DNA of 63,508 nucleotides, the filler included. It is 4 parts of 4 records of this genome, joined end to end, with 100 filler letters (N's around TTAATTAATTAA, not from the genome) between each part and the next. Parts side by side here need not be neighbours in the genome. Positions count along the whole stretch, not along the records: positions 1 to 14,779 come from DRR723986_4073; 3 more parts are not named here. The stretch is one strand, 5' to 3'. The notes beneath the pieces were generated by a model, which was not told where the DNA came from, searched no databases, and was given only the letters and a program-made list of their open reading frames with translations. The first letter of the stretch is position 1. Every line of letters begins with the position of its first letter. Positions 1 to 46,295 of the stretch are shown piece after piece. Position numbers and translations under genes: made by a program.

Positions 1-966
1 GTCGTCACGGCAATTTTTCGAGGTGCCCAACAGGTTGTTCCGATCCAATCCTAATCGGCTGATTGGTGGTTTAGACTTTAGCGCCGAGTGCGGACGGTGC
101 CAATTGTAGAGATGCGTCCATACGGGCAGCTCCGCCGCGCGGTCTTCTGAGGTCTGGTAGGCGCGGGCATAGGCCCATTCGCGCAAAGCGGTTTGGATGA
201 ACCTTTCAGCTTTGCCATTGGTCTTCGGCGTGTAGGGTTTGGTCCTGATGTGCCGGATGCCGAGCCAGGCGCAGGCTGCCTTGAAGGCATTGGATTTGTA
301 GCAACTGCCGTTGTCCGTCATGACCCGCGCCACCTTCACGCCCATGGACGCATACCACGCCACCGCCGCCTTCAGATGTGCGACTGCGCTGACTGCCTTC
401 TCGTCCGGATGGATTTGAGTGGAGGACAGCCGTGACGCATCATCGATGCAGACATGCACATACTCCCAACCGATCCCGCGACTGTTGGACTGGCCTGTCC
501 TGTCGCCGGTGATGCGATGGCCGGTGCGCTCGAACTTGCCGAGGCGTTTGATATCGAGGTGGATCATGTCGCCGGGATGCTCACGTTCATAGCGCCGCAC
601 CGGCTCGGCAGGCTCCAGATCGCGCAGGCGGCTGAGGCCCGCCCGGCGCAGCACCCGGCTCACCGTGGCAGGCGAAACGCCGGTCTTGGCAGCAACATGC
701 GCCCCCGTCAGGCGTTCACGGCGCAAGGAAATGATCCGCTCCGCGACATCCTCAGGCGTCGGATTGCGCAGAGAATGCGGCCGCGACCGGCGGTCCCGCA
801 AACCGCTTCGGCCCTCCTGTTCATATCGTCGCCACCACTTCGCAGCGGTCTTGGCAGAACAGCCGCAAACGGCCCCGGCTTGCGAAAAGGCCATCCCGGC
901 TGCGATCATCCCAACAAGCCGCTCTCGACCCAAAGGCGTCAGTCTGGCATTCTGATGCACGTTCAT
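1..966 (-). CDS. IS481-family DDE transposase (no stop codon inside the window)
   Basis: Manual translation, absent from the ORF track: MNVHQNARLTPLGRERL...HPGDMIHLDIKRL...VCIDDASRL...VMTDNGSCY...PYTPKTNGKAERFIQT...YNWHRPHSAL...NNLL. The frame is open from 966 to 1. Confidence 0.95.
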   Translation of the reverse strand, partial: MNVHQNARLTPLGRERLVGMIAAGMAFSQAGAVCGCSAKTAAKWWRRYEQEGRSGLRDRRSRPHSLRNPTPEDVAERIISLRRERLTGAHVAAKTGVSPATVSRVLRRAGLSRLRDLEPAEPVRRYEREHPGDMIHLDIKRLGKFERTGHRITGDRTGQSNSRGIGWEYVHVCIDDASRLSSTQIHPDEKAVSAVAHLKAAVAWYASMGVKVARVMTDNGSCYKSNAFKAACAWLGIRHIRTKPYTPKTNGKAERFIQTALREWAYARAYQTSEDRAAELPVWTHLYNWHRPHSALKSKPPISRLGLDRNNLLGTSKNCRDD

Positions 967-1049
967 TCGATCCCTCCGAACAGTGTTGAAGCTTGGTAAC
1001 TCCAACCAACTCGGTCAGGATCGAATGGACAACCTGTTGAAAGCTCACA
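1..1049 (-). mobile_element. IS481-family insertion sequence, right end disrupted or running off the contig
   Basis: On the minus strand the left end reads TGTGAGCTTTCAACAGGTTGTCC from 1049, the typical TGT terminus. The inner IR core CAACAGGTTGTTC recurs at 28-40 without the terminal TGT. The element encloses the transposase. Confidence 0.9.
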
Positions 1050-1060
1050 GCTAGGTCATC

Positions 1061-1092
1061 ACCGTCGCCCCTTCTAGGAAGAGGGCGGCGGT
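1061..1092 (+). terminator. Terminator-like hairpin next to the IS481 left end
   Basis: ACCGTCGCCC-CTTCTAGGAAGA-GGGCGGCGGT followed by TTGATCTTT. Confidence 0.45.
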
Positions 1093-1150
1093 TTGATCTT
1101 TGACGAATGAGGCGGGGAGAGTGGCTTCCCGCGCCGTCGGAGACATTGCC

Positions 1151-1669
1151 ATGTTTGACCTTCCCCTGCCGATCCAACCGAGCCCGCGACCGTTGGGCCC
1201 CGTTCCAAATTGCCCGACTGTCGCTCCTGATCCCAACCTACCTTTCGCGCTGACGCGGATGCACCGGACACCTGCAGCCCTGATGTCGGGCACCGCTGCC
1301 CCCGTAGTCGTTGAGCGTTTTGCGACGCTGGCCGATGCCATGCAGGGCGCGTGTGAACTTGCGGAGGACTACGGCCTCGATCCAGCGCCGCAGCTTCTGG
1401 CCATCCTTGATTGCGACCAGCGCCTGGTTCTTGCCGGGGCCGCCAGTCATGGCGCTGTGGCTTGGTGCCACCCTGTCGCCAATGCCCTTGAGGCGCGGGC
1501 CGTCGTGACCGAGGCGGTTCAACTTCGCGCCCAGGCTGGCCGTGCCATTGATTGGCACGAGCCTGAATTGGCGCAGCGGCTGCGTCACCGTGCTGATCTG
1601 CTGGATGCGCGTCTGGTCGACCCGCTCTGGCGCGCCTTTGCCGCTCGCGCGCTGCAGATCGCGGCGTGA
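1151..1669 (+). CDS. Hypothetical protein of the element backbone
   Basis: GGAGA RBS before ATG 1151; co-oriented with the downstream operon. Confidence 0.7.
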   Translation: MFDLPLPIQPSPRPLGPVPNCPTVAPDPNLPFALTRMHRTPAALMSGTAAPVVVERFATLADAMQGACELAEDYGLDPAPQLLAILDCDQRLVLAGAASHGAVAWCHPVANALEARAVVTEAVQLRAQAGRAIDWHEPELAQRLRHRADLLDARLVDPLWRAFAARALQIAA

Positions 1670-1771
1670 CGCCCGAGAGACAGAGGAGGGATGGGAGGGG
1701 TTTGAGCCTCGGGGGCCAGAAGAGTGCGCCACCTGGGGGGTCTGACCTGTCCTCACCGAACGGAGTTATCC

Positions 1772-2263
1772 ATGACCCAGACTGAACCCACTCTGGCCGC
1801 CCCGCTGCGGCCTTCCACCGTCGATTTCAGGGTGATCCTTGCCGCGCATGCCGAACGCACCGCCCGGACCCTCGCTCTGCGCCCGGGCAACAAAGACCGG
1901 CTCTTCGATGGTCTCATTGCCGCCGGCATCACCCATGTCACTGTGACCTTCGACGGTGCCGGGGACAGCGGCCAGATCGAAAGCATCGGCGCATGGTCCG
2001 GCGAGACCGCCGTCGAGTTCCCGGCGACCGAGATCGCCTATGCGGCACTGACCTGGGACGACCCCGAGGTCGAGATGCGGCAGCTCTCGCTGGAAGATGT
2101 CGTCGAGCAGCTGGCCTACGACTTCCTCTCCGACGCCTATGGCAGTTGGGAAAACAACGACGGCGCTTACGGCGAGTTCTGCTTCGACGCATCCGCACGC
2201 TGTATCCATCTGGAGTTCAACGAGCGCTTCACCTCGTCCGAACTCTACACGCACGATTTCTGA
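1772..2263 (+). CDS. DUF6878-like protein
   Basis: GITHVTVTFDGAGDSGQIE and WENNDGAYGEF motifs; acidic; GGAG RBS. Confidence 0.8.
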   Translation: MTQTEPTLAAPLRPSTVDFRVILAAHAERTARTLALRPGNKDRLFDGLIAAGITHVTVTFDGAGDSGQIESIGAWSGETAVEFPATEIAYAALTWDDPEVEMRQLSLEDVVEQLAYDFLSDAYGSWENNDGAYGEFCFDASARCIHLEFNERFTSSELYTHDF

Positions 2264-2273
2264 GGGGGCGGCG

Positions 2274-2651
2274 ATGGCACATCCCTACCACCACGCGCTG
2301 TCCTCGGTGAAGAAATGGGGCGGCACGGTCGACAATTTTATGGCGGTGCATGCCTGGTTCGACCAGAGCAAGGAGATCACCGCCGACTTCCGGCACCGGG
2401 CCCTGCGGCACCATGCCGAGGGCATATTCATGGCCGAGACGATCTTCGGCCAGACCCTCACGCTCTCGACCGGGCGCATCATCCCGACCCGATGGGTTGG
2501 CGAACAACATGTGAAAGAGGATCTCGGCTTCATCCCGAGCTTTGCCGATTGGGTGAAGGCCATCCGGCCCGAACCCTGGATGGGCCGGTCCGAGCGGATC
2601 GAGGCGCTGGTCGATCCGCATCACGCCTCGCCCGTGGTCGAGGTCAGCTGA
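2274..2651 (+). CDS. DUF6915-like protein (His-rich, putative metal-binding)
   Basis: MAHPYHHALSSVKKWGG, HAWFDQSK, RHRALRHHAEG and EQHVKED motifs. Confidence 0.85.
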   Translation: MAHPYHHALSSVKKWGGTVDNFMAVHAWFDQSKEITADFRHRALRHHAEGIFMAETIFGQTLTLSTGRIIPTRWVGEQHVKEDLGFIPSFADWVKAIRPEPWMGRSERIEALVDPHHASPVVEVS

Positions 2652-2652
2652 C

Positions 2653-2850
2653 ATGACTGATCCCGCATACTTGCGCCTCGGTCTGCCGCCGACGGCATCG
2701 CCTCAGACAGTTCTGCGCGCGGCGGTCCGGGCGCTTCACCCCGACACGCGCGCCGTGCGCAGCTTCCGGACGGCGCGCAAGCGCTTCTACCTGCAGATGC
2801 TTTGTGCGCATGCCGCGCAACAGGCGGCGGGTGACAATCCTACCGGCTGA
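2653..2850 (+). CDS. Small basic hypothetical protein
   Basis: 65-aa ORF starting 2 nt after the DUF6915 stop; Arg-rich. Confidence 0.6.
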   Translation: MTDPAYLRLGLPPTASPQTVLRAAVRALHPDTRAVRSFRTARKRFYLQMLCAHAAQQAAGDNPTG

Positions 2851-2926
2851 TCGCTTCCAACCAACCCTTCATCCCAATCCAGCGCCCGGCCCCAAGGCCC
2901 TGGTTTCTCAATCTCAGGAGGTCCCC

Positions 2927-3346
2927 ATGGCGGATTACTTCAACCATTTCTCATGCCTGATCGACGTCGGCAGCCCCGAAAAGGCCGCCCGCGTACTCGC
3001 GCTGTTTCATGACCTGCGCGCTGCGGATCAGGACGCCGACGACCCGGAGGTGGCGGGTTTCACCCTCGTGCATCAGGACGCGCCCGAGGGCAGCACCCTC
3101 TGGATCCATGATGATGAGCACGGCGATGTCGAGGCGGTCATCCGCTTCGTGCTGCGCCTGGCAGAAGACCTCGACCTCACCGGTCTCTGGGGGTTTCAGT
3201 ACGGTCTGACCTGTTCCCGCCCGCGCCTCGACGCCTTCGGCGGCGGCGCGCATGTCATCGATCTCGGCGCGTGCAAGTCCATCGGCTGGACCAGCAGCCA
3301 GGAATGGCTCGCCGCCGCGCTGAACGGAGAGGACGCCGATGCCTGA
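2927..3346 (+). CDS. Hypothetical protein (MADYFNHFSC...WGFQYGLTCSRPRLDAFGGGA)
   Basis: Strong AGGAGG RBS; overlaps the start of the next gene. Confidence 0.8.
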   Translation: MADYFNHFSCLIDVGSPEKAARVLALFHDLRAADQDADDPEVAGFTLVHQDAPEGSTLWIHDDEHGDVEAVIRFVLRLAEDLDLTGLWGFQYGLTCSRPRLDAFGGGAHVIDLGACKSIGWTSSQEWLAAALNGEDADA

Positions 3347-3983
3347 GGTGATCTGCACCACCGTCTACCAGTTCCCCGAGCTTTCGGAAGCGGCCAAGGA
3401 AAAGGCGCGCAGCTGGTATCGCGAGATCGGGCCCCACGACGATTGGTGGGACGCGGTCTATGAGGATTTCGAGCGGGTCTGCGAAATCCTCGGCATCCGC
3501 CTGAAGACCACGCCCTTCCGCCTGATGGGCGGCGGCACGCGGGCAAAGCCCTGCATTTGGTTCTCCGGCTTCTGGAGCCAGGGCGACGGGGCCTGCTTCG
3601 AGGGCTACCTTAGCCATGCCAAGGGTGCGGCCGCGCGCATCCGCGACTACGCGCCCCAAGACGCGGCGTTGCACGGCATCGCCGACCGGCTGCAGGCCAT
3701 CCAGCGGCGTAACTTCTACCATCTCGCTGCCGAGGTCAGCCACCGCGGCCGCTACTACCACGAATACACCATGGCCGTTGACGTCACGCGGCACAGCCCG
3801 ACCTGGCAGCCACCGACCGAGGACGCCGAGGAGATCGTGACCGAGGCGCTGCGTGATCTGGCCCGCTGGCTCTACCGCCAACTTGAGGCTGAATACGACC
3901 ACCTCACTTCGGACGAGGCCATCGAGGAAGGGATCATCGTCAACGAGTACACCTTCACCGAAGGAGGGCGCCACTTCGGGTGA
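3339..3983 (+). CDS. Acidic plasmid/phage-type protein, often auto-annotated 'antitoxin of toxin-antitoxin stability system'
   Basis: VYQFPELSEAAKEKARSWYR, FSGFWSQGDGACFEG and NEYTFTEGG motifs; function unverified. Confidence 0.75.
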   Translation: MPEVICTTVYQFPELSEAAKEKARSWYREIGPHDDWWDAVYEDFERVCEILGIRLKTTPFRLMGGGTRAKPCIWFSGFWSQGDGACFEGYLSHAKGAAARIRDYAPQDAALHGIADRLQAIQRRNFYHLAAEVSHRGRYYHEYTMAVDVTRHSPTWQPPTEDAEEIVTEALRDLARWLYRQLEAEYDHLTSDEAIEEGIIVNEYTFTEGGRHFG

Positions 3984-4001
3984 GGCGGCACGGTTGAAAA
4001 C

Positions 4002-4029
4002 TGTCAGAAAATTGCGCATTTTTCTGACA
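4002..4029. promoter_or_regulatory. 28-bp palindrome, probable autoregulatory operator of the DUF6088 gene
   Basis: TGTCAGAAAA-TTGCGCAT-TTTTCTGACA directly upstream of the AGGAG RBS. Confidence 0.7.
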
Positions 4030-4040
4030 AAGGAGCGATC

Positions 4041-4634
4041 ATGGAGCGCAGGGCCGAGAGCATTATGAAGGTCGCGATGACGTTGCCGGAGGGGGTGCCC
4101 TTGGCAGCGAAGGGGCTCCTGCACCTCGGCTCGCGCGCGGCGGTCGATCAGACGCTGTCGCGTCTGGCCGCGCGCGGCGAGCTGATCCGTGCGGGACGCG
4201 GCATCTACATGCGCCCGGTCCAGACACGCTTTGGCCCGCGCAGTCCGTCCGCTGAACAGGCGATTGAAGCACTCGCTGTGCAGCGGGGCGAGACGATCGT
4301 CCCGAGCGGTGCTGCCGCGGCAAACGTTTTGGGCCTCGCGACACAGGTGCCGGTCAAGTCGGTTTACCTCACCTCGGGGCGAAGCCGCGTACTGAACCTT
4401 GGCCGGCAAGCGGTCGAACTTCGTCATGCGCCGCGTTGGCAGTTGGCCCTTGGGAGCAAGACCTCCGGCCAGGTTGTCCGGGCTCTTGCCTGGCTCGGAC
4501 CGGATGAGGCTCCCAAGGCCCTGCAAATCCTGCGATCCAAGCTCACGGAGACGGCAAAGACTGAACTGATGTCCGCCGCGCCGCAGTTCCCGACTTGGCT
4601 GGCACGATTGGTTGGAGAGATAGTCCATGGCTGA
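4041..4634 (+). CDS. DUF6088 / AbiEi-like wHTH antitoxin (type IV TA)
   Basis: LGSRAAVDQTLSRL...LIRAGRGIY...GAAAANVLGLATQVP...YLTSG. Confidence 0.85.
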   Translation: MERRAESIMKVAMTLPEGVPLAAKGLLHLGSRAAVDQTLSRLAARGELIRAGRGIYMRPVQTRFGPRSPSAEQAIEALAVQRGETIVPSGAAAANVLGLATQVPVKSVYLTSGRSRVLNLGRQAVELRHAPRWQLALGSKTSGQVVRALAWLGPDEAPKALQILRSKLTETAKTELMSAAPQFPTWLARLVGEIVHG

Positions 4635-4660
4635 GGCATCAGTGCACCTGAGCGCTTTGC
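4627..4660 (+). pseudogene. Probable 5' remnant of the cognate AbiEii toxin gene
   Basis: The ATG overlaps the DUF6088 3' end and reads MAEASVHLSA. The frame then gives only a 67-aa ORF with no nucleotidyltransferase motif. Confidence 0.4.
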
Positions 4661-4750
4661 CTGGTGCCCATCCCGAGGCGGGAGGCAAATTCAAGACAGT
4701 CGACGCAGGGGGCCAATGCTCACCCGCCTCGCGACGGTGCGGTGCACGGT

Positions 4751-5668
4751 TCAGCCCAGAAGCTTCAGCAGGGCGTCGCGCTGCGCAGTGTGCTTTATGG
4801 GGTTGTCGCGCTTCAGCTTACTCAGGTTGAGGAGTTTCCACTGCACGGCTGGCAGGTGTACCGCCTGCAACCGGTCGATGGCCGCAAAGTCCGGCTCACC
4901 GTCTTGAAGTGTCAGAAGGAACTGCCTCGCATTGGCATCGAGTCGCGATTGCACATCGGCGATCATTTTCAGCCGCGTCGCCAGAAGTATGTCTAGGGGG
5001 ACCGGTGTTCTGGTCATGCCCTCGAATTCCCGCGCGTAGGGTTGCCCGAGATCGATCAGGTTCGGATCGAGCAGCTCATGCGCCGGGCGCGGCGAACTGG
5101 CGACATAGATCAGGAAGGTCTGGAAGAGGTCCTGCGTCAGGCCCTCGTTCTCGTAAAGGAGCGTGACGTCGTAGAGATCCCGGGGATGCTGCCTGTCGAG
5201 GGCAGCGTGCAGTTTACCAGCGAACAGGTCTTCGAACGAGACGATCTGCATTTCAGCATAGCCATAAGCATCTTCCACAGCAGCCGAGACAGTCCGGATT
5301 TCCGGGTCGTGGACAACGCCTCGGGTCACGGGCGAGGTTTCGATCTTGATCTCGGCATTGCCGAGGCGCGCCAGAAGCCGCGTGGCTCCACCGCCGCCTC
5401 CTTGGATGCGTTGAGATTTCGCGCCGCGGATACCGGTCTCGATGGATGCGGCGATCCGATCCATCGCGGCGTTGATCTCGTTCAGGCTCTCTGCGCGATC
5501 CTTGATTGGCAGGTAGGTCAGGTCGATATCGACCGACAACCGCGGCAGGTCGCGATAGAACAGGTTGATGGCCGTCCCGCCCTTGAGCGCGAAGACGTTT
5601 TCGCTCGCGACATGGGGCAGGACGCGCACCAGGAGCGCAACTTGGGCTTCATAGGTCTCACGCGCCAT
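4751..5668 (-). CDS. abiEii: AbiEii/AbiGii-family nucleotidyltransferase toxin
   Basis: FALKGGTAINLFYRDLPRLSVDIDL and GKLHAALDRQHPRDLYD motifs. Confidence 0.93.
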   Translation of the reverse strand: MARETYEAQVALLVRVLPHVASENVFALKGGTAINLFYRDLPRLSVDIDLTYLPIKDRAESLNEINAAMDRIAASIETGIRGAKSQRIQGGGGGATRLLARLGNAEIKIETSPVTRGVVHDPEIRTVSAAVEDAYGYAEMQIVSFEDLFAGKLHAALDRQHPRDLYDVTLLYENEGLTQDLFQTFLIYVASSPRPAHELLDPNLIDLGQPYAREFEGMTRTPVPLDILLATRLKMIADVQSRLDANARQFLLTLQDGEPDFAAIDRLQAVHLPAVQWKLLNLSKLKRDNPIKHTAQRDALLKLLG

Positions 5669-6479
5669 TGCCGGCCTCCGGTTTTACGAAATCTTCCGGC
5701 ACCATGATCCGATAGCGCGGGTGGATTTTGCCACCTCGGACCAAGGCTCGGTCGCCGCTGCCGAGGTCGAATGCCTGCGGGTCGACCCGTTTGCGCCAGG
5801 GATGATCGTGGCGGTCGGCAAAGACGAAGAACAGGCGCTTGACCTTGATCTTGCGGCACGCCTGGAGGAGGTCGGCAAGCAGTTTCGGGCGAAGGGTCGT
5901 CAGGCTCTCGAAGACCATATCGAGCGTGTGGAAGCTTTCATGGTCAGGCAACTCGTCCATGGCCTCAAGGATCGCGCGCTCCGGCGTCGACATCGTCAGA
6001 CCCCAGTCCCATGGCTGGCCGGTCGTTTTGCCATCAATCAAGCCCAGTTTCGGATCGGTAAACAAGGATCGGGGGCGGGTTCTGATCGTGGCATCCATCG
6101 GCAGTTTCGCCAGCCAGTTGGGGATACTTTCCCCATAGACCCAGACCGGACCGCTTTCGCCGAGGCGCAGATAGTGGGCATGCCCCTGTTCGCCGAGCGC
6201 CGTGGTGCCGCCCACATGCAGGTCGTGGCCCATAATATGCTGCGTGGAGAGGATGCAGGTCTTCCAGTCGATGCCGTTCGATGTCGGGGTGGCTGCGGTG
6301 CTGGGGAGTGGGCGGCGGAATACGCCTCGGGTGATGCGGTCGAGCCAGCCGCGCTTCACATAGTCACGGAAGCTCTCATAGGCGATGCCTTGGGAGACCA
6401 GCCACGCGGCATCGACCAGATACCCGGCGGGCACTGCATCGAGCAGTTTCTTCAGATTCTGTGACCTTGCGGCGTCCAT
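5658..6479 (-). CDS. abiEi: AbiEi-family antitoxin (alternative TTG start at 6488)
   Basis: YVKRGWLDRITRGVFRR N-terminal HTH; STPERAILE; CRKIKVKRLFFVFADRH; overlaps the abiEii start. Confidence 0.9.
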   Translation of the reverse strand: MDAARSQNLKKLLDAVPAGYLVDAAWLVSQGIAYESFRDYVKRGWLDRITRGVFRRPLPSTAATPTSNGIDWKTCILSTQHIMGHDLHVGGTTALGEQGHAHYLRLGESGPVWVYGESIPNWLAKLPMDATIRTRPRSLFTDPKLGLIDGKTTGQPWDWGLTMSTPERAILEAMDELPDHESFHTLDMVFESLTTLRPKLLADLLQACRKIKVKRLFFVFADRHDHPWRKRVDPQAFDLGSGDRALVRGGKIHPRYRIMVPEDFVKPEAGNGA

Positions 6480-6843
6480 GATACCCAAATAGACATATTT
6501 TCAAAGAGACATCTACAGATTTCTTTGATGAGGATGCTTTTCTGGCGTTATGGACGCTCCAACATCACCATTTCCAAAGAACTGAGGGGCTAGCCCCAAG
6601 TGGAGGAAGATCTGAAGACGCTGGGTCGAGAGACGACTACGACTTGCGGTGGTTGCCGAAGGCCGATGTGGGCACCTCCCGGCGTCCCGCCAGGCCCAGG
6701 TCTTGGTCCTTCGGACAGGAGTTTGACCGAGGCTGATGTCCCGAAGGGCTAATCTGCTGACCTATAGGTTGGCAAATACGCTCGGTTTGCCAAGCCACGG
6801 TATGGCAGAAGCTCCGGAAGGCCGGAGCCAGCCGGTGCCGCGC

Positions 6844-7140
6844 TCACTTGTTCCCGTCGATCCACTTCGACATCAGCCCCTTGTCGCGGAAACACTCATC
6901 CGGGACGGCGCGGCGTTTGATCCGGGCGAGGCGCTCGGCAAAGGCGACCTGTTTGGACGAGGGCAGGCTGTCCAGCGCTGTCGCGGGTGTGAGCTTGGCC
7001 TGTGCGTCGATCCAGGCGCTCAGGGACCGCCGATCTTGCTGAACCTCCCACGGCAAAAGTGTCTGATTGCGCAGGGCCAGAGCGCGCGCATAGGCGATCT
7101 GCTTGGGCGTCGCGGGCAGGGCGTAAGTGGTGCTTTCCAT
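6844..7140 (-). CDS. Small protein made of two tandem ~48-aa repeats
   Basis: LPATPKQIAYARALA...D...S.WID and LPSSKQVAFAERLA...D...S.WID; GGGAG RBS upstream. Confidence 0.85.
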   Translation of the reverse strand: MESTTYALPATPKQIAYARALALRNQTLLPWEVQQDRRSLSAWIDAQAKLTPATALDSLPSSKQVAFAERLARIKRRAVPDECFRDKGLMSKWIDGNK

Positions 7141-7175
7141 CGGGGATCTCCCTTCTTGGCGTGGCTCTTAAAATA

Positions 7176-7190
7176 GAACATAGCAAGAAC
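7176..7190 (-). promoter_or_regulatory. Alphaproteobacterial LexA (SOS) box
   Basis: GAAC-ATAGCAA-GAAC, i.e. GTTC-N7-GTTC on the minus strand, about 35 nt upstream of the 7140 start. Confidence 0.8.
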
Positions 7191-7316
7191 AAAAGCAAGC
7201 TACCTGCGAAAATCATGGGGTTTGAGAGGAAGAGGAGGGCCGGGGAAGGTCAGGCCTGAGGGTGCCCGAAAGAGGGTGTCCGGGCCTGATCCTGTTCCTC
7301 ATTCCGGAGTTTCCCG

Positions 7317-10300
7317 ATGACCCATCTCGCCCCCTTTGCGACCGAGCGCGCCCTTGCGCCTCTTGTCCCCATCCCGTCCCTCGATACGGCCGCTGCGATC
7401 TTGAGCGTGGCCGAAGCGCTGCAGACTGACCTGGCGCAAGGTTTCCAGATCGACGCGCTGCGCCTGCGCGTTGAGATGGAGCGCGTCTTTGGCGGCTCTG
7501 ATGCGACCGGCGCTTGGGACTGGAAGCTGGCCTATGAGGCGGGCGAGGCAGCGCAGGTCTTGTTCCTGCGGAAGTTTGGCCGCGCGCTGTTGGCGCGGGC
7601 TGGATCACCCGCCGCGCTGCTGCCGATCCTTGCCAAGGTGTCCGGCCTCTTGCCCACGCATACCCGACGTTCGGAGGAGATGGAGCAGTTCCAGCAGTTC
7701 TCGACGCCGCTGCCCATGGGGCTGGCGGCAATGGCTGCAGCACAGATCACCGCGCGCGATTTGGTGCTGGAGCCATCGGCTGGGACGGGCCTTCTGGCGA
7801 TCCTCGCCGAGATCGCGGATGGCAGACTCGCGTTGAACGAACTCGCCGAGACCCGCGCCGACCTTCTGCGTCACCTCTTTCCGGGCCGACCCGTCACGGG
7901 CTTTGACGCAGCACAGATCGACGATCATCTGGACGCAGGCCTTCGCCCGAGCGTCATCCTGATGAACCCGCCGTTTTCGGCGGTGGCCAATGTCGACGCT
8001 CGCACCACCGAGGCGACAGCCCGGCATCTGCGCTCGGCGCTTGCGCGTCTGGCCCCCGGCGGACGGTTGGTCGCCATCACCGGTGCGGGCTTCGCGCCCG
8101 ATGCGCCCGCCTGGGCGGAAACCTTCGCCCGCCTGACCGAGACCGCGCATCTGGTCTTTACGGGCGCCGTGTCAGGTGCTGCCTTCGCCAAGCACGGCAC
8201 CAGCTTTGAGACGCGGATTTCGGTCTTCGACAAATGCCGCGGTTGCGAGCCGGGCGGCATCACAACCGATCTGACGCGCCCGATATCGCCTGATGTCGCC
8301 AGCCTGCTGTCGCTGATCACTGCCCACGTTCCCCCGCGCCTTGCGCTGGACGCCCGAAGCCCTAGCGCGCACGTCCCCACTTCCACCTTCCCGGGAAATC
8401 TTGCCCGCACCACGCGCGCAGCCATCAGCACATCGCGCGCCACGCCAGCAACACCCGCCACCAACACCGCTCCACAGATCAAGGCCGCAGACCTCGCCTA
8501 TACCCTGCGCGATGCAACCGCGGACGGGGCCAGCACGCGCCTGTCGGATGCCATTTATGAGACCTTCCGCCTGCAGGCGATCGACATACCCGGAGCGGCA
8601 CCGCACCCGACCAAGCTGGTGCAATCTGCCGCCATGGCCTCAGTCGCGCCCCCGAAACCGACCTATCGCCCTAAGCTGCCCGCCGCCATCAAGTGCTGTG
8701 GCCTGCTGTCCGACGCGCAGCTCGAGACCGTGATCTACGCGGGCGAGGCGCATGGCGCGTATCTCGCGGGGTCTTGGACTGTCGATGAAACCGGCGACAT
8801 GGTCTCGGCTGCGCCCGACGATGCCACGGACGCCGTCCGCTTCCGTCGTGGCTTCTTCCTTGGCGATGGCACTGGCGCGGGCAAGGGCCGCCAATCCGCC
8901 GGTATCCTGCTCGACAACTGGTGCCAAGGTCGGCGCAAGGCGCTCTGGATCTCGAAGAGCGACAAGCTTCTCGAGGACGCTCAGCGCGACTGGTCTGCCC
9001 TTGGCCAGGAACGGCTGCTGGTCACGCCGCTGTCGCGTTTTGCCCAAGGCCGCGACATCCCGCTCTCCGAGGGCATTCTGTTCACCACCTATGCGACGCT
9101 GCGCTCCGAAGAGCGGGGGGCAAAAAAGTCCCGGGTCGACCAGATCGTCGACTGGCTTGGGGCGGATTTCGACGGGGTGATTCTCTTCGACGAAAGCCAT
9201 GCCATGGCGAATGCCGCCGGATCGAAGGGCGAACGTGGCGATACCGAAGCGTCGCAGCAGGGCAGGGCTGGCCTGCGCCTGCAGCATAAACTGCCCAGTG
9301 CCCGCATCGTCTATGTCTCAGCCACCGGGGCGACTTCAGTTCACAACCTCGCCTATGCGCAGCGCCTCGGGCTCTGGGGTGGCGAGGACTTTCCGTTTTC
9401 GACGCGGGCGGAATTTGTGCAAGCTATCGAAGCTGGCGGCGTTGCCGCGATGGAGGTGCTGGCCCGCGATCTGCGGTCGCTTGGCCTCTACACGGCGCGC
9501 TCGCTGTCCTATGACGGCGTCGAATACGAGATGCTGGTTCATGCGCTCAGTCCCGAGCAGCGCGGCATCTACGATGCCTATGCCGGGGCCTTCGCCATCA
9601 TCCACAACAACCTGGCCGCCGCGTTGGAAGCTGCAAACATCACTGGAGATTCTGGCACACTGAACCGTCAGGCCAAGTCCGCCGCCCGCTCGGCGTTCGA
9701 GTCTGCCAAGCAGCGCTTCTTCGGGCATCTGCTCACCAGCATGAAAACCCCCACCCTGATTTCAAGCATCGACGCCGATCTTGCCGCAGGCCACGCGGCC
9801 GTCATCCAGATCGTCTCGACTGGCGAGGCGCTGATGGAACGCCGCCTGTCAGACATCCCTACGGATGAATGGAACGATGTGCGGGTGGATATCACGCCAA
9901 GAGAGGCTTGCCTGGACTACCTCGCGCATTCCTTCCCCGTGCAGCTCTACGAGCCTTTCACAGACAGCGAGGGCAACCTGTCCTCGCGGCCTGTCACGCG
10001 AGACGGCCAGCCGGTGGAATGCCGCGAAGCCGTGCGCCGCCGCGATGCGCTCATCGAGCATCTGGCCTCGCTGCCGCCCGTGCCCGGCGCGCTTGACCAG
10101 ATTGTTCAGCGCTTCGGCACCGATCTCGTGGCCGAGGTCACGGGCCGCTCGCGCCGTATCGTGCGCAAGGGCGAAGGTCCTGCCGCCCGCCTTGTCGTCG
10201 AAAGCCGGGCCGGCTCGGCCAATCTCGCGGAAACCGCCGCCTTCATGGATGACCAGAAGCGCATCCTGATCTTCTCGGATGCCGGCGGCACGGGGCGCAG

Positions 10301-11696
10301 CTATCACGCTGATCTCAGGGCAAAGAACCAGCGCCTGCGGGTCCATTACCTTCTGGAACCCGGCTGGAAGGCAGACGCCGCCATCCAGGGATTGGGCCGC
10401 ACCAACCGGACCAATCAGGCGCAGCCGCCGCTGTTTCGCCCGGTCGCCACCGATGTGAAAGCGGAGAAGAGGTTCCTCTCGACCATTGCGCGCCGTCTCG
10501 ACACGCTTGGCGCCATCACGCGCGGTCAACGCCAGACCGGCGGGCAAGGGTTGTTCCGTCCCGAGGACAACCTCGAGAGCCCTTATGCCCGCGATGCCCT
10601 GCGCCAGCTTTACCGCCGCATCTATCGCGGCGATCTGGCCGGATGCTCGCTCGGGGCCTTCGAGGATGCGACTGGTCTCAGCCTGACCGACGACAACGGG
10701 CTGAAGGACGACCTGCCCCCGATCACCACCTTCCTCAATCGCCTGCTGGCGCTGACGATCGACATGCAGGCCGTGCTGTTCTCGGTCTTCGAGGAACTCC
10801 TCGACCAGCGAATCGAGGGCGCTATCGCCGCTGGGGTCTACGACCTCGGGCTCGAGACGCTGCGCGCCGAGAGCTTTCAGGTGACGGACGCACGGGTGAT
10901 CTACACCCATCCCGGCTCCGGCGCGGAAACCCAGCTGCTGAGCATCGCGCAAAAGCAGCGCAATACACCGCTGTCACTGGCGGATGCGCTCGACTGGCTC
11001 GACGACCTAAAGGCACGCCTGCTGGTCAACAGCCGCTCGGGCCGGGCTGCCGTGCAGGTGCCCGCGACCAGCCTGATGCTGGACGATGGCACCATCGAAC
11101 CCCGCCTGCGGCTGATCCGCCCGACTGACGCCAGAACCGTGCCTGCCAAGATCATGGAAGACACCCATTGGCTGGAAGCCGACCGCACGGCCTTCGCCGC
11201 CGCATGGACTGCGGAACTGGCCGAGGTGCCGGAGTTCTCGGAAACCACGCTACACATCGTGGCGGGCCTCTTGCTGCCGATCTGGAAGCAGCTCCCCCAG
11301 GACGAAACCTGCGTCTACCGCTTGCAGACCGGCGATGGCCAGCGCATCATCGGCCGCCGCGTCTCGCCCGCCTGGGTCGTGACCACGCTGGCGGCTGACG
11401 CGCCGGAACTGATGGCGACGCAGATCCATGCCCTCGTACTTGAGGGCAAGACGGTCGTGCGGTTGGCTGAAGGGATGGAGTTGCTCCGTTCACGCGTCAT
11501 GGGCGTGAACCGGATCGAGCTCTCCGGCTTCACTGAGGCCGCCAAAGAACGGCTGAAGGCCGATGGCTTCTTCTCGGAGATCATCAGCTGGAAGCTGCGG
11601 CTCTTCTGCCCAGCAGACCCGAGCGGAATCGCAGTGCTTGATCGTCTGCTTGCACGTTGTCCTGTGACGGGACTACATGCACGAGGAGGTTGCTAA
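7317..11696 (+). CDS. N6/N4 DNA methyltransferase fused to a strawberry-notch-like SF2 NTPase/helicase
   Basis: QQFSTP, VLEPSAGTG and NPPFS (MTase); GDGTGAGKGRQ Walker A; FDESH; YVSATGA; QGLGRTNRTNQ. Confidence 0.93.
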   Translation: MTHLAPFATERALAPLVPIPSLDTAAAILSVAEALQTDLAQGFQIDALRLRVEMERVFGGSDATGAWDWKLAYEAGEAAQVLFLRKFGRALLARAGSPAALLPILAKVSGLLPTHTRRSEEMEQFQQFSTPLPMGLAAMAAAQITARDLVLEPSAGTGLLAILAEIADGRLALNELAETRADLLRHLFPGRPVTGFDAAQIDDHLDAGLRPSVILMNPPFSAVANVDARTTEATARHLRSALARLAPGGRLVAITGAGFAPDAPAWAETFARLTETAHLVFTGAVSGAAFAKHGTSFETRISVFDKCRGCEPGGITTDLTRPISPDVASLLSLITAHVPPRLALDARSPSAHVPTSTFPGNLARTTRAAISTSRATPATPATNTAPQIKAADLAYTLRDATADGASTRLSDAIYETFRLQAIDIPGAAPHPTKLVQSAAMASVAPPKPTYRPKLPAAIKCCGLLSDAQLETVIYAGEAHGAYLAGSWTVDETGDMVSAAPDDATDAVRFRRGFFLGDGTGAGKGRQSAGILLDNWCQGRRKALWISKSDKLLEDAQRDWSALGQERLLVTPLSRFAQGRDIPLSEGILFTTYATLRSEERGAKKSRVDQIVDWLGADFDGVILFDESHAMANAAGSKGERGDTEASQQGRAGLRLQHKLPSARIVYVSATGATSVHNLAYAQRLGLWGGEDFPFSTRAEFVQAIEAGGVAAMEVLARDLRSLGLYTARSLSYDGVEYEMLVHALSPEQRGIYDAYAGAFAIIHNNLAAALEAANITGDSGTLNRQAKSAARSAFESAKQRFFGHLLTSMKTPTLISSIDADLAAGHAAVIQIVSTGEALMERRLSDIPTDEWNDVRVDITPREACLDYLAHSFPVQLYEPFTDSEGNLSSRPVTRDGQPVECREAVRRRDALIEHLASLPPVPGALDQIVQRFGTDLVAEVTGRSRRIVRKGEGPAARLVVESRAGSANLAETAAFMDDQKRILIFSDAGGTGRSYHADLRAKNQRLRVHYLLEPGWKADAAIQGLGRTNRTNQAQPPLFRPVATDVKAEKRFLSTIARRLDTLGAITRGQRQTGGQGLFRPEDNLESPYARDALRQLYRRIYRGDLAGCSLGAFEDATGLSLTDDNGLKDDLPPITTFLNRLLALTIDMQAVLFSVFEELLDQRIEGAIAAGVYDLGLETLRAESFQVTDARVIYTHPGSGAETQLLSIAQKQRNTPLSLADALDWLDDLKARLLVNSRSGRAAVQVPATSLMLDDGTIEPRLRLIRPTDARTVPAKIMEDTHWLEADRTAFAAAWTAELAEVPEFSETTLHIVAGLLLPIWKQLPQDETCVYRLQTGDGQRIIGRRVSPAWVVTTLAADAPELMATQIHALVLEGKTVVRLAEGMELLRSRVMGVNRIELSGFTEAAKERLKADGFFSEIISWKLRLFCPADPSGIAVLDRLLARCPVTGLHARGGC

Positions 11697-11699
11697 GTC

Positions 11700-12731
11700 A
11701 TGTATTCCGAGACCGAAGATGTGATCCGCGCTCTGGCGGAAAACGCAGAAGGCGTTTGTCGCGCCTACCTTCCCGCCGGGCGGCGGGAAGGGTCCTACTG
11801 GATCGTGGGCGATCTGCAGAACAACCCCGGCCGGTCGCTCTTCGTGCGGCTGACTGGACCCACATCAGGACCGGGAGCCCGTGGCAAATGGCAGGACGCG
11901 GCTGTCGGACTGCATGGCGATCTCCTCGACATCATCCGCGAGCGAACCGGGATCTCGCGCTTTCCCGATCTTCTGGCCGAGGCCCGGGCGCATCTTGGCC
12001 GACCCCAGCCGGTCCTCCCGAATACGCCAGTGCCGAAGAAGGCCAAAGCCCCCGGTGGCACGCCAGCGGCGGCGGCGCGATTGTTTGCAGCCTCGGTGCC
12101 GGTCGCAGGCACGCTTGCCGACACCTACCTCCGCTCCCGAGGCATCACCCAAGGCGGCACGATGAGCGCGCTGCGCTTCCACCTGAAGTGCTGGCATCGG
12201 GATGAGGGTCAGACCCGAAGCATCCCCAGACCGGCGCTGATCGCGGCTGTCACCGATGGGGCAGGGGCCTTGCAGGGTGTGCATCGCACTTGGTTGGCAC
12301 CTGACGGACAGGGGAAGGCGGAGGTCGAGACGCATCGGCGGGCCATGGGTCACCTCCTCGGTAATGCCGTCAGGCTGACCCCGCAGCACAACATCCTCGT
12401 GGTCGGCGAAGGCATCGAGACCATGCTGTCCCTGTCCGAGGCGGCCTCCGGCCTTCCCGTCTGGGCGGCTCTCTCGTCGGGTCACCTCGGGGCGGTCCAG
12501 TTGCCGGAGGGGCTGCAGCGCCTTTACATCGCCATCGACCGCGATCCTGCCGGGCAACGCGCGGCGGAGAGGTTGAGCGCCAGAGCCCTTGATGCCGGGA
12601 TTGCCGTCCGGGTGCTGGAACCGCTTCTCGGAGATTTCAACGATGATCTCCGAGCGAACGGCAAGGAGGCGCTGCGTCAGCATCTGGCTGGGCAGATCGG
12701 GCGAGAGGATCTGCAGCGCCTCTTGGGTTGA
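11700..12731 (+). CDS. Toprim-domain (primase-like) protein
   Basis: N-terminal GKWQD...GDLLDII; YLRSRGI; GVHRTWL; VGEGIETMLSL; IAIDRD; GDFNDDL. Confidence 0.9.
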   Translation: MYSETEDVIRALAENAEGVCRAYLPAGRREGSYWIVGDLQNNPGRSLFVRLTGPTSGPGARGKWQDAAVGLHGDLLDIIRERTGISRFPDLLAEARAHLGRPQPVLPNTPVPKKAKAPGGTPAAAARLFAASVPVAGTLADTYLRSRGITQGGTMSALRFHLKCWHRDEGQTRSIPRPALIAAVTDGAGALQGVHRTWLAPDGQGKAEVETHRRAMGHLLGNAVRLTPQHNILVVGEGIETMLSLSEAASGLPVWAALSSGHLGAVQLPEGLQRLYIAIDRDPAGQRAAERLSARALDAGIAVRVLEPLLGDFNDDLRANGKEALRQHLAGQIGREDLQRLLG

Positions 12732-12843
12732 GCTGCATGGCGCAGAGGGTGGTCAGGGGCTGAGGGGGTAGGGGTCCTGCAGTCCTGTCGTGGGTGTGGA
12801 TCATCACATTTGCCTCTTCCCGGATAAATCTCATCCACCCGAC

Positions 12844-13062
12844 ACCCGAGCGGCCTTCAAGAGATGGGCAGGCGGCCGTCAAAGGGGACGCCCCTTCAAG
12901 GACGGGGAGCGACTGATTTCCGCCGACGGGGACAAGCCCCGCCTTTGCATCGCGAAGCAAATCAGCCGCCCTCCGTCCTCCTCCACATGCCTTTCGGCCC
13001 CGAAAGGGGGTGAAGGGGCGGCCCCCGTGACGGCTTCCGCAGCCCATGAAGGCCGCGCGGGT
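12844..13062. other. ~220-nt nested inverted-repeat foldback (candidate ssDNA origin/promoter or ncRNA)
   Basis: Nested stems: CCCGAGCGGCCTTCA/TGAAGGCCGCGCGGG, ATGGGC/GCCCAT, GCCGTCA/TGACGGC, CGCCCCTTCA/TGAAGGGGCG, AGGACGG/CCGTCCT, CTGATTT/AAATCAG, CCTTTCG/CGAAAGG. Confidence 0.75.
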
Positions 13063-13099
13063 TGACGCGCGGACGAGACTAGCCCGGAGGCAAGAACCG

Positions 13100-14032
13100 A
13101 TGACGATCCACATCCACGACGACGCGCATGAACCCGCCCACACCGCATCCCAGACCGCCCATGCGCTCGACGAGCTGCAGCTCTATGGCTACCGCCCCTT
13201 TGACGAGCCCGATCCGCGCCCGATGCCCGATGGGCAGCGCCTCGCGGTCGCCGTCGCCGACATCTTCGACGCCCTCGTCGCGACCCTCGAAGACACCCGC
13301 ATGGAACCCGACCTCGAAGAAGTGCTCTGGGGCCAGGTCAACCTCTTCCACCGCGCGACGGCCCGGATCGAGCGGTCACTCGATGAGAACGAACAGGCGC
13401 AGCGGCGCCTCCAGCGCGAGCAGGATGGCTCCGAGGTGAAATCCACCGAACTCGAGCGGCTGACGGCCGAAGGCCTCACCCTGATCGAACGTCGGAACTG
13501 CATGGACATGATGCGGGATCACGCCGCCACCGAGTTTGTCCATCACACGGGCTCTGCCTGGCGCCCCCGCACCGGCTCGATGGTGAACCGCCAGCACATG
13601 ACCGCAGCGCTCATCGACAGCCGCGACTTCCTGGCCGCCAAGCGCCGCGCGGAAACCGAGGTGATGCTCCCCACAGGCCCCAAGGTCGCCCTCACCGGCG
13701 GGACCGACTTCAACGATCACCGCCTGATCTGGGGCAGGCTCGATCAGGTCCGGACCAAGTATCCCGACATGGTGCTCCTGCACGGTGGCAGCCCCAAGGG
13801 CGCAGAGCTCATCGCCGCCAAATGGGCCGAGGCCCGGGGCGTGACGCAGGTCGCCTTCAAGCCCGACTGGACCAAGCACGCCAAGGCCGCGCCCTTCAAG
13901 CGCAACGACGCGATGCTCGATGTGCTGCCCGTGGGTGTTCTCGTCTTCCCGGGCACCGGCATCCAGGAAAACCTCGCCGACAAGGCTTCGAGGCTCGGCA
14001 TCCCGGTCATGAAGTTCGAGAAGGGGGCGTGA
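13100..14032 (+). CDS. DUF2493 (YspA-like SLOG) domain protein with N-terminal helical region
   Basis: KVALTGGTDFND, VLLHGGSPKGAELIAAKWA, AAPFKRND and FPGTG motifs; GGAGG RBS. Confidence 0.88.
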   Translation: MTIHIHDDAHEPAHTASQTAHALDELQLYGYRPFDEPDPRPMPDGQRLAVAVADIFDALVATLEDTRMEPDLEEVLWGQVNLFHRATARIERSLDENEQAQRRLQREQDGSEVKSTELERLTAEGLTLIERRNCMDMMRDHAATEFVHHTGSAWRPRTGSMVNRQHMTAALIDSRDFLAAKRRAETEVMLPTGPKVALTGGTDFNDHRLIWGRLDQVRTKYPDMVLLHGGSPKGAELIAAKWAEARGVTQVAFKPDWTKHAKAAPFKRNDAMLDVLPVGVLVFPGTGIQENLADKASRLGIPVMKFEKGA

Positions 14033-14116
14033 GCCCCCTCTTTCTTTTCGGGATAGAACATTGTGGAAACACGGCCATGCACTTGATATTGTGGTCTGGA
14101 GAGAGGCGCCAACAAC

Positions 14117-14389
14117 ATGTTCGACATATCGCAGCAAATGGAAGTGTTCCCGACCACGGTCGATCTCAAGCGGATCGACCCCTCCGTCAACATGCGGCGC
14201 TTCTATCGGATGACGATTCAGCCGGACTTGTTCGGTGGCGCATGCCTCGTGCGGGAATGGGGCCGTATCGGGTACCGAGGTCAGATGCTGATCGAACAGC
14301 ACTCGGACGAAGGGCGCGCCGTCAATGCGCTCATGAAGCTTGCGGTGACGAAGAAGCGTCGGGGGTATCAGTTATTGTTTGAATCGTAA
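14117..14389 (+). CDS. Stand-alone WGR-domain protein
   Basis: NMRRFYRMTIQPDLFGGACLVREWGRIG...KKRRGY. Confidence 0.9.
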   Translation: MFDISQQMEVFPTTVDLKRIDPSVNMRRFYRMTIQPDLFGGACLVREWGRIGYRGQMLIEQHSDEGRAVNALMKLAVTKKRRGYQLLFES

Positions 14390-14595
14390 GAACGGCCCAT
14401 TGCTGCCGTTCATCATGCTATCGCGATGCTGCGGCAGCCGCTCGCATAGCGGACGTTCGGCAAGGTCTGCAACAATCATCGTCGCGGAAGGTCGGATTGA
14501 CGGCTTCGTACCCGACATCAAATCTTGGTCTTCGCTGGCGCTGTTGCTTCTTGCGCAAACTGCGAAGGTCCGGCTTTCGAAGAAGTCGGCAATTT

Positions 14596-14778
14596 CTATA
14601 TTCTTTCCAGAATTTGATCGGGATCGCAGGGCAATACAATACGTTTCCTGACGCCGATCCGCTCGAGAAACGCCGCATCGTGGCTGAGCACCAAGATCGC
14701 GCTGTCATAGGCCGTGAGCGCAGTCTCGAGTTCCTCGATTGCGGCCAGATCGAGGTGGTTGGTCGGTTCGTCGAGGAT
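14596..14778 (-). CDS. ABC-F-type ATP-binding protein, C-terminal fragment at the contig end
   Basis: Manual translation ILDEPTNHLDLAAIEELETALTAYDSAILVLSHDAAFLERIG...*. Confidence 0.85.
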   Translation of the reverse strand: MLDEPTNHLDLAAIEELETALTAYDSAILVLSHDAAFLERIGVRKRIVLPCDPDQILERI

Positions 14779-14779
14779 C

Positions 14780-14879
14780 NNNNNNNNNNNNNNNNNNNNN
14801 NNNNNNNNNNNNNNNNNNNNNNNTTAATTAATTAANNNNNNNNNNNNNNNNNNNNNNNNNNNNNNNNNNNNNNNNNNNN
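14780..14879. other. Artificial contig linker
   Basis: N-run, TTAATTAATTAA, N-run. Confidence 0.99.
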
Positions 14880-45014: not shown

Positions 45015-45114
45015 NNNNNNNNNNNNNNNNNNNNNNNNNNNNNNNNNNNNNNNNNNNNTTAATTAATTAANNNNNNNNNNNNNNNNNNNNNNNNNNNNNN
45101 NNNNNNNNNNNNNN
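45015..45114. other. Artificial contig linker
   Basis: N-run with TTAATTAATTAA. Confidence 0.99.
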
Positions 45115-46291
45115 TTTCCATGTTCACCACCATGATGATGCCCAGGTGAATGGGATCCACGCCCAGCTCAATCGCGATCGGGAACACCAGCGGCGCCACG
45201 ATGACCAACAGGCCCGATGGCTCCATAAACTGACCACCGATCAACAGGATCACGTTCACAATCACCAGGAACATGATCGGCCCAAAACCCGCATCCAACA
45301 TCGCCGCCGAGATTTGCTGCGGGATCTGTTCGTCGGTCAGAACATGCTTGAGGATCAACGCATTGGCGATGATGAACATCAGCGTCACCGTCAGCTTGCC
45401 GGCCTCAAACAGCGTATGGCGTGTGTCGCGGTGGAAAAAGGCTGTGAACAGCGCCATCGGCTTTTCGAGCAGCGACAGGTTGCGGGGCATTTCGGCCTGA
45501 TGCAGCGGCCCCATGTCGCGATAGACAAAGGAGGCGATGAAGAAGGCATAGACCGCCGCCACCGCGGCCGCCTCGGTCGGGGTAAAGATACCGCCGTAGA
45601 TGCCGCCAAGGATGATCACGATCAGGAACAGCCCCCAACCGGCCTCGCGCCCCGACGACCAGACCTCGCCCCAGCCCAGCCATTCGCCTTTGGGCAGGTT
45701 CTTGATCTTGGCCATGGCATAGATCGTCACCATCAACATGGTGCCCGCCATCAGCCCCGGAATAACGCCCGCAAGGAACATCCGCCCGACAGAGACATCC
45801 GTGGCGGAGGCATAGACCACCATCACGATGGAGGGCGGGATCAGGATGCCAAGTGTGCCCGCGTTGGCGATGACGCCTGCGGCAAATTCCTTGGTATAGC
45901 CAACCTGCCGCATGCCCGCGATCACGATGGACCCGATAGCAACCACCGTGGCCGGGGATGATCCGCTCAGCGCGGCAAACAGCATACAGGCAAAGACGCC
46001 CGCAATCGCCAGACCGCCGGGCAAATGCCCGACCAGAGCGATGGAAAACCGGATGATCCGCCGCGCCACGCCGCCCGTGGACATGAAGGACGACGCCAGA
46101 ATGAAGAACGGGATCGCCAGCAAGGTGTAATGCCCCGCCATCGCCTGAAAGAACGTCTGGGCAATCGAGGCCATCGACGTGTCCGACAGCGCCAGCAGAA
46201 AGACGATAGAGGACAGGCCCAGCGATACGGCAATCGGCACGCCGATCAGCATCAGACCGACAACCATTGTAAATAGGATCACAACTTCCAT
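45115..46291 (-). CDS. dctM: TRAP transporter large permease (3' truncated at the contig end)
   Basis: LLAIPFFILA, ALSGSSPATV, GTLGILIPPSI and FTPTEAA motifs. Confidence 0.95.
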
Positions 46292-46295
46292 GATC

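Follow-up and report, generated by a model that had tools for sequence, protein, structure and literature searches.

The stretch of DNA analysed here, the window, comprises 63,508 nucleotides in four contigs joined end to end (1-14779, 14880-45014, 45115-52592 and 52693-63508), with three spacers of the form N44-TTAATTAATTAA-N44 at 14780-14879, 45015-45114 and 52593-52692 across which no feature can be read. Our subject is a block of 14 genes lying wholly within the first contig (G+C 63-67%), together with the structured leaders, LexA-type box and 285-nt foldback found between its genes, which the original prediction took for the early-transfer, leading-region module of an alphaproteobacterial conjugative element. 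The largest gene of the block (7317..11696, plus strand) encodes a 1459-residue N6-adenine methylase fused to a strawberry-notch-type superfamily 2 (SF2) helicase. Direct reading finds the methylase motifs LEPSAGTG and NPPF intact in its N-terminus and the rest is strawberry-notch-type helicase (Pfam AAA_34 and Helicase_C_4); the S-adenosylmethionine-binding motif I, the NPPF motif IV and both helicase domains of a methylase-helicase dyad are present. It is followed on the same strand by a primase-like protein with DUF7146 and Toprim_3 domains (11700..12731; Pfam, Toprim_3 E = 2.7e-26), whose Toprim motifs read EGIE, DRD and DFND, the acidic residues and the DaN-acidic motif both being intact; no zinc-finger family matches this protein, it has only two cysteines, and DUF7146 occupies the zinc-binding domain's place. 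Beyond a gap of 369 nt, which contains the foldback, come a 310-residue YspA-type SLOG (DUF2493) protein with a GGAGG ribosome site at its start (13100..14032, plus strand; PF10686, E = 6.6e-30) and a stand-alone WGR-domain protein of 90 residues (14117..14389, plus strand; PF05406, E = 2.6e-20). Window positions 28-14399 are 99.99% identical to positions 79555-93926 of G001:C6, a 143,555-bp RepABC plasmid contig, and everything said below about context refers to that G001 copy and its relatives rather than to the window's own replicon.

The left part of the block begins at an IS481-family transposase gene that runs off the window's left end (1..1005, minus strand; Pfam rve, rve_3 and LZ_Tnp_IS481) and that in G001:C6 stands between RadC and the block. 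From there the plus strand carries a 172-residue gene, its start codon picked by eye, without a Pfam or NCBIfam match (1151..1669), genes for a 163-residue DUF6878 protein (1772..2263; PF21798, E = 5.9e-47) and a 125-residue DUF6915 protein (2274..2651; PF21866, E = 1.2e-47), a 65-residue open reading frame abutting the DUF6915 stop (2653..2850), where a gene of like size is annotated in the Phaeobacter porticola plasmid pP97_c, and a 139-residue gene with a GGAGG ribosome site before its ATG (2927..3346), matched at the same place in pP97_c by a 139-residue hypothetical protein. The 214-residue gene that follows (3339..3983, plus strand) has no Pfam family at E ≤ 0.1, and its counterparts in pP97_c and in the Roseicitreum plasmid pRA04 are annotated 'antitoxin of toxin-antitoxin stability system'. 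Next on the plus strand is a DUF6088/AbiEi-like antitoxin-type regulator with no toxin gene behind it (4041..4634; PF19570, E = 3.1e-24); right before this orphan gene, at 3995-4035, lies a palindrome, CTGTCAGAAAA..TTTTCTGACA, which is likely its autoregulatory operator. The minus strand then carries a complete AbiE type IV toxin-antitoxin (abortive infection) pair as one operon, the AbiEi antitoxin/regulator (5658..6488; PF11459 and PF17194) overlapping the start of the adjacent AbiEii nucleotidyltransferase toxin (4751..5668; PF08843, E = 5.3e-44), and a gene for a 98-residue protein of two repeats of about 40 residues and no assigned family (6844..7140), divergent from the helicase gene.

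Pfam and direct reading thus confirm the methyltransferase-SF2 helicase fusion, the Toprim, SLOG and WGR proteins and the small uncharacterised genes of the original prediction, which had also called the genes co-oriented; this holds for the 11 on the plus strand and fails for AbiEii, AbiEi and the 98-residue gene on the minus strand. Searches of Pfam (E ≤ 1), NCBIfam and PDB sequences and a single Atlas look-up left the 172-, 65-, 139-, 214- and 98-residue proteins unassigned, the sole lead for the last being DUF3072 (score 0.79); for the helicase N-terminus and for the Toprim and SLOG proteins they added nothing to the Pfam families listed above. Rfam returned no family at E ≤ 1 on 1-14779, and a promoter and terminator scan of the first contig found nothing above shuffled sequence, with one promoter-like site in 14.8 kb, inside the insertion sequence, against 1.7 expected.

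Two of the plus-strand genes are preceded by related structured leaders. One is a hairpin in the 100 nt before the helicase gene (7220..7319, plus strand), structured on the sense strand and kept in 15 loci. The covariance model R1, which was built on this helicase leader, matches it at 118 bits (E = 7e-26) and finds a second copy before the DUF6878 gene (1671..1775, plus strand; 45.2 bits, E = 5e-9); R1 also matches before DUF6878 at the same position in pP97_c and pRA04, and weakly before the DUF932 gene (E = 0.02, 0.79 and 0.08). Related leaders had been proposed before three genes, and these two stand; at the third site, before the SLOG gene (about 12738-12800), we find only a short GGTCAGG..CTGAGGG motif and no R1 match at E ≤ 5 even with filters off. 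Within the helicase leader one pair is G:U on the sense strand in 15/15 loci and others are in 11-13 of 15, and one-sided changes outnumber double changes. Because these G:U positions become C:A mismatches on the template strand, the strand on which a Frpo promoter forms, the conservation pattern identifies both leaders as predicted sense-strand RNA structures and not as Frpo-type promoters, and the suggestion that they are promoters on single-stranded DNA has to be given up. The radC RNA motif (RF01754) is a structured 5' leader common to several DNA-handling genes of mobile elements; the leader described here is likewise a structured 5' leader of DNA-handling genes, yet RF01754 has no match to it at E ≤ 1.

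The divergent promoter region between the helicase gene and the 98-residue gene contains an exact LexA-type SOS box, GAAC-N7-GAAC (7176..7190, plus strand), whose half-sites are invariant in 15/15 related loci with only the seven spacer bases varying. The recA and lexA genes of G001 are each preceded by GAAC-N7-GAAC-N7-GAAC, the same direct repeat, and the box is a predicted LexA operator. A second box that had been proposed (14056-14070, one mismatch) is not kept in the two other plasmids checked and is dropped here, and across the whole window GAAC-N7-GAAC shows no enrichment, with 54 matches where 48.7 are expected. Among loci of the close helicase subgroup in which the upstream flank is preserved (L014-L030 and L041), 17/17 have the 98-residue gene at 82-100% identity; it is absent from all 12 other loci, and the loci of distant subfamilies and the Rhizobium plasmid pRL7 lack both the box and the gene. 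Its product follows the repeat pattern P.xKQ.A.A..LA...P.....S.WID and co-occurs strictly with the LexA box. Since the box is absent from the distant helicase subfamilies and pRL7, the SOS control predicted from these comparisons is real but lineage-specific, and may belong mainly to the 98-residue gene.

The foldback between the Toprim and SLOG genes (12810..13095, strand-neutral) was defined by folding and covariation. Folded as single-stranded DNA it reaches -107 kcal/mol (z = -7.95), and in 14 relatives its 78 main-stem pairs are 96.9% paired against 34-49% with slid partners. Double changes fall at 14 pairs and in 73 cells, compared with 0-13 cells in the slid controls, and only four pairs vary on one side alone; the large foldback of the original prediction is in this way well established. 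It is present in 9/11 further loci of more distant subfamilies (z ≤ -3), the exceptions being L032 and pRL7, and occurs once per element, always before SLOG, with nhmmer finding no second copy in any element examined. A palindromic unit of about 40 nt (core CCCCACGCGAC..GTCGCGTGGGG) is inserted at the foldback tip in two loci from different helicase subfamilies, L027 (G196:C15) and L036 (G267:C1), a hint that extruded hairpin tips are the target of some small element.

Among the 1092 main-stem cells of the foldback 1033 are Watson-Crick, 25 are G:U on the plus strand (13 of them contributed by one invariant pair), 12 are G:U on the minus strand and 22 are other, and the wobble pairs show no strand bias. 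Because pairing is nearly pure Watson-Crick without strand preference, unlike that of the RNA leader, these alignments suggest a DNA-level element. An intercistronic RNA hairpin in a Toprim-SLOG transcript, controlling SLOG translation or transcript stability, is a possibility that we consider doubtful. Such a hairpin would sit, as the foldback does, inside an apparent operon; in the closest subgroup the base of the foldback touches the SLOG ribosome site, it folds as RNA with z = -3.5, and a short contig from an RNA library spans 12829-13078, a weak indication as such libraries can hold DNA. However, an RNA of this kind accords poorly with four pairs varying one-sidedly against 14 two-sidedly, or with main-stem G:U frequencies of 2.3% on the plus and 1.1% on the minus strand where the RNA leader of the same genomes is rich in plus-strand G:U pairs. 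A further point against it is that the ribosome site of the 70% subfamily is not part of the foldback stem. Contigs of four metatranscriptome runs from four studies also fall on the stretch, mostly at 90-95% likeness; they come from relatives, are short, do not show strand or ends, and may include DNA.

A single-stranded-DNA promoter, Frpo, was reportedly described by Masai and Arai in 1997. Compared with the Frpo/ssi elements of F, ColIb-P9 and pESBL, as set out in excerpts of PMC12672017, the foldback is similarly a long imperfect hairpin of a few hundred bases, intergenic and on the leading side, conserved in structure upstream of a leading-side gene, and its Watson-Crick pairing is what a double-strand mimic would need. 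The same excerpts set it apart in that it occurs as a single copy per element rather than several, always follows a primase-like gene, shows no strand bias in its wobble pairs and has no recognised -35/-10 pair; the comparison is one of structure and not of Frpo sequence. We offer only tentatively, at somewhat less than an even chance, the idea that the foldback is a start signal active only on conjugation-delivered single-stranded DNA and paired with the preceding Toprim gene. It would form an alphaproteobacterial ssi/Frpo-type class of its own, unrelated in sequence to the enterobacterial ones, priming the complementary strand and/or early SLOG-WGR expression.

To place the block in its elements we turned to G001:C6 and its relatives, which range over RepABC plasmids of Rhodobacterales and Rhizobiales and integrated conjugative elements. 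In G001:C6 repA, repB and repC lie at 63.3-66.9 kb and are followed by a 762-residue ParB-like protein, a low-G+C ABC-3C defence set, H-NS, SSB, a DUF932-like gene, RadC and the IS481 gene; the block itself occupies 80.6-93.9 kb. Beyond the block, about 25 kb of copper/metal genes and an IS256-type transposase lead to minus-strand genes for Fic and a VirC1-like ATPase. A repeat-rich gap that includes two inverted repeats (119.28-119.37 kb) separates these from the plus-strand genes for MobC, a VirD2-type relaxase (PF03432) and VirD4, after which the virB genes follow. This order recurs in pP97_c, which carries less cargo, and pRA04 keeps it between repABC and WGR but has no relaxase; pRL7 reads repABC, AbiE, ParB, helicase, Toprim, a 380-nt gap and DUF2493. 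The genes of an integrated element in G075 all lie on one strand and run ArdC, DUF2958, DUF6878, Phd/PIN, helicase, Toprim, SLOG, SSB, RepA, ParA, methylase, S26 peptidase, DUF3363-type relaxase, TraG and Trb. Across whole elements the order is ParB-like, H-NS, SSB, DUF932, RadC, DUF6878, small genes, a toxin-antitoxin slot, methylase-helicase, Toprim primase-like protein, foldback, SLOG and WGR, reading toward a downstream origin of transfer (oriT) and relaxase. In this copy, seen in its G001 context, insertion around the block of an IS481 element and of metal-resistance cargo amounting to about 25 kb has taken it out of the neighbourhood of oriT. Helicase homologues occur in 665 plasmid records, of which 356 are typed conjugative, 79 mobilizable and 230 non-mobilizable, and the helicase is present in 61/301 sampled Rhodobacterales genomes.

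Two places in this backbone vary in content. The toxin-antitoxin slot holds AbiE in the window, Xre/RES in pP97_c, a 'mobile mystery protein' pair in pRA04 and Phd/PIN in G075; lying between the 214-residue gene and the helicase operon (window 3984-6843, L012 17905-19004, L013 93-1156, L056 5517-6202), it acts as a hotspot for exchange. The interval from the ParB-like gene to H-NS holds the ABC-3C set in G001:C6 (70639-73614, or L004 10639-13614), a TrlF ATPase in pP97_c and an ImmA-type peptidase in pRA04, and because the contents differ at that place in the three plasmids it is a second variable slot.

Sixteen plasmid records are shared by our helicase tables (100 rows) and relaxase table (60 rows), and in all 16, among the matches listed and with two of the records possibly one plasmid, helicase and relaxase are on the same strand with the helicase 11-48 kb upstream. 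The same arrangement is found in pP97_c, G001:C6, G193:C10, G075:C1, G267:C1 and G267:C84, so that overall in 21/21 elements with both genes on one record or contig the helicase lies upstream of the relaxase, on its strand and 9-48 kb away. In G261:C4 the strand is shared and the order ambiguous, and on G261:C1 and G051:C13 no PF03432 relaxase was seen. The co-orientation extends across helicase subfamilies of 45-100% identity and different relaxase sizes; the relaxases are typed MOBP and carry PF03432.

In F, RP4 and R64 the relaxase gene enters the recipient last, and in the MOBP models RP4 and R64 the operon of accessory-protein and relaxase genes, which points away from oriT, is the last to be transferred. 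Relaxosome genes are placed in the lagging region in excerpts of Samuel et al. 2024 (PMC11541004), which also report that leading enrichment is found in the first 30 gene positions. Because the relaxase enters last by the rule that these plasmids and that paper share, the block is predicted to lie on the leading side, with the transferred strand as template; 11/14 block genes are on the relaxase's strand and would, with this polarity, be read from the transferred strand. A gene count from the relaxase side of pP97_c reaches WGR at 16 and DUF932 at 30, which puts the block inside the first 30 genes, and in the G075 integrated element SLOG to DUF6878 are likewise inside the first 30 genes from oriT. 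The G001:C6 block is outside those positions, with about 31 called genes (25.4 kb) between oriT and WGR. The leading-region reading of the original prediction is reasonable but borne out only in part, gaining from the 21/21 arrangement and losing from this distance; mapping oriT and the relaxase in complete homologues, as that prediction had advised, puts the block on the predicted leading side, with a nick on either strand compatible with the sequence.

The reverse order of transfer, with MobC and relaxase first, the block among the last DNA to enter and the coding strand as the transferred strand, is in our view improbable. It draws on the oriT of G001 type, in which two inverted repeats 8 nt apart flank an invariant stretch ending G CCC T on the plus strand, an inverted repeat followed after about 8 nt by a sequence that recalls the RSF1010-type nick region as that motif is generally known. 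It sits badly with relaxases that are MOBP with PF03432, the class in which the relaxase operon of RP4 and R64 enters last. The SSB, RadC, DUF932, ArdC and methylase genes are, moreover, oriented as leading genes are elsewhere according to the excerpted Samuel et al. 2024.

The candidate oriT spans G001:C6 118925-119405 (L006 18925-19405) and consists of several GAGACGG-type direct repeats, an inverted repeat with 10-bp arms, 8 nt, a 62-nt hairpin and mobC, the first inverted repeat showing compensatory changes among three plasmids. Nick cores of the RP4/VirD2 and RSF1010 types, motifs taken from general knowledge, were sought in two oriT families and did not fix the polarity, and ATCCTG on the minus strand of pP97_c, considered as a nick site, is not kept in three related plasmids, whose regions hardly align.

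Taken together, these results show a real, conserved and mobile backbone module, found in alphaproteobacterial conjugative elements that use VirB/Trb-type transfer systems, of which the block makes up the larger part. We regard it as probable, with moderate confidence, that this module is their leading-side establishment region, which its place and orientation fit. Several observations weigh against this. The 21 synteny cases come from related backbones and represent conserved synteny rather than independent events, the direction of transfer is derived by rule and a nick on either strand fits the G001-type oriT, and in G001 metal-resistance cargo stands between the block and the candidate oriT, at a distance of 25.4-38.6 kb and about 31 called genes. 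The window contig diverges from G001 past base 14399, and the distance given here is that of G001. Three block genes (4751-5668, 5658-6488 and 6844-7140) are oppositely oriented, no block gene matches a tested anti-defence family, and the LexA box is absent upstream of the helicase in 11/11 loci of distant subfamilies and in pRL7. Nor is there a -35/-10 pair in or near the foldback (no sigma-70-like site in 12700-13100, with a promoter consensus that may differ from alphaproteobacterial promoters), and a reading of the 14 aligned copies found no conserved hexamer pair at 16-18 nt spacing.

A further set of such observations is at the same time the case for another explanation, namely that the module, with its helicase, primase-like, SSB, ParB-like and H-NS genes, is a replication and maintenance accessory of the replicon, inherited with repABC, whose position relative to oriT is a by-product of shared backbone and not of selection for early entry. 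In plasmids the module always adjoins repABC, being directly downstream of it in G001:C6, pP97_c, pRA04 and pRL7, and it survives without a relaxase, both in pRA04 and in the 230 of 665 helicase-bearing plasmid records typed as non-mobilizable. We nevertheless judge this explanation unlikely, since the G075 integrated element has no repABC and yet keeps the same genes in the same order, 6-30 genes upstream of the relaxase and with ArdC, and since co-orientation holds across helicase subfamilies of 45-100% identity and relaxases of different sizes. In addition, WGR (219 members) and strawberry-notch/methylase (63 and 9) stand among the 'other unknown leading families' in supplement file 6 of Samuel et al. 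2024 (PMC11541004), as excerpted.

The leading regions and anti-defence islands of IncF and IncI plasmids, in the excerpted account of Samuel et al. 2024 (PMC11541004), resemble the block in lying on the oriT side opposite the relaxase with genes reading toward oriT, and in having an orphan methylase, toxin-antitoxin genes, SSB and RadC/DUF932 neighbours and many small unknowns. In contrast, the block has different families and cis elements, lies 9-48 kb from the relaxase with a cargo slot between, adjoins repABC, persists in relaxase-less plasmids and lacks PsiB, ArdA and KlcA.

The DarB protein of phage P1 represents a related methylase-helicase system. The dyad was described by Iyer et al. 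2017 (PMC5512222), who in the excerpted text also treat Toprim_3 domains as DnaG-like primases of type IV secretion system (T4SS) elements. With their systems the block shares an adenine methylase fused to a strawberry-notch/SWI2-type helicase and a Toprim_3 protein with a DaN-acidic motif encoded by a T4SS element; it departs from those excerpted in that its proteins are separate and mid-sized rather than one giant polyvalent protein, and in that its Toprim protein has no zinc finger. Within the literature searched, no paper combines 'Frpo' with 'Alphaproteobacteria', and of the five papers there that mention DUF2493 none, by title and start of abstract, is on conjugative elements. The excerpted text of a Martelella paper (PMC5613091), which cites Patzelt et al. 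2016 for demonstrated conjugation of roseobacter plasmids, and that of a Mesorhizobium paper do not discuss the module. We found no published description of the conserved foldback.

As to its distribution, 13 DNA runs from at least seven studies contain 97-100% of the sampled words from window positions 6800-14389 (7.6 kb), five of the 13 being marked as possible sources of the window DNA itself; the several organism labels among these runs suggest recent spread of a near-identical element. The rest of the window concerns other DNA. The products of contig 14880-45014 include two giant proteins that carry C-terminal sorting domains for type IX secretion, as well as DUF4286 and OmpA-like proteins, a Bacteroidota-like profile, and the surrounding contigs are alphaproteobacterial (RegB/RegA/SenC and AhcY on 52693-63508). 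Because of its G+C content of about 50% and its type IX sorting domains, this contig looks to come from a different kind of organism, and the bin to be mixed.

If the block is a leading-side establishment region, its side would enter the recipient first and the relaxase last, and the transferred strand would serve as template. The methylase and helicase could then methylate or remodel the incoming DNA against restriction, the Toprim primase-like protein could prime the complementary strand, and the SLOG and WGR proteins may bind nucleotides or DNA ends. The shared RNA leader would coordinate expression, which in this lineage might also be induced through an SOS response provoked by the incoming single-stranded DNA. 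The foldback would work as a DNA element, with a start signal on single-stranded DNA as its most likely role, whether as a priming site for the adjacent primase-like protein or as a Frpo-like promoter for SLOG-WGR.

What is known of how conjugative DNA establishes itself early on comes almost entirely from enterobacterial IncF and IncI plasmids. Should the module be the leading-region counterpart in alphaproteobacteria, then DUF6878, DUF6915, SLOG, WGR and the small genes would be candidate establishment proteins, and the region would bring with it a shared RNA leader, a link to the SOS response and a candidate signal on single-stranded DNA in the foldback, the finding's most original part.

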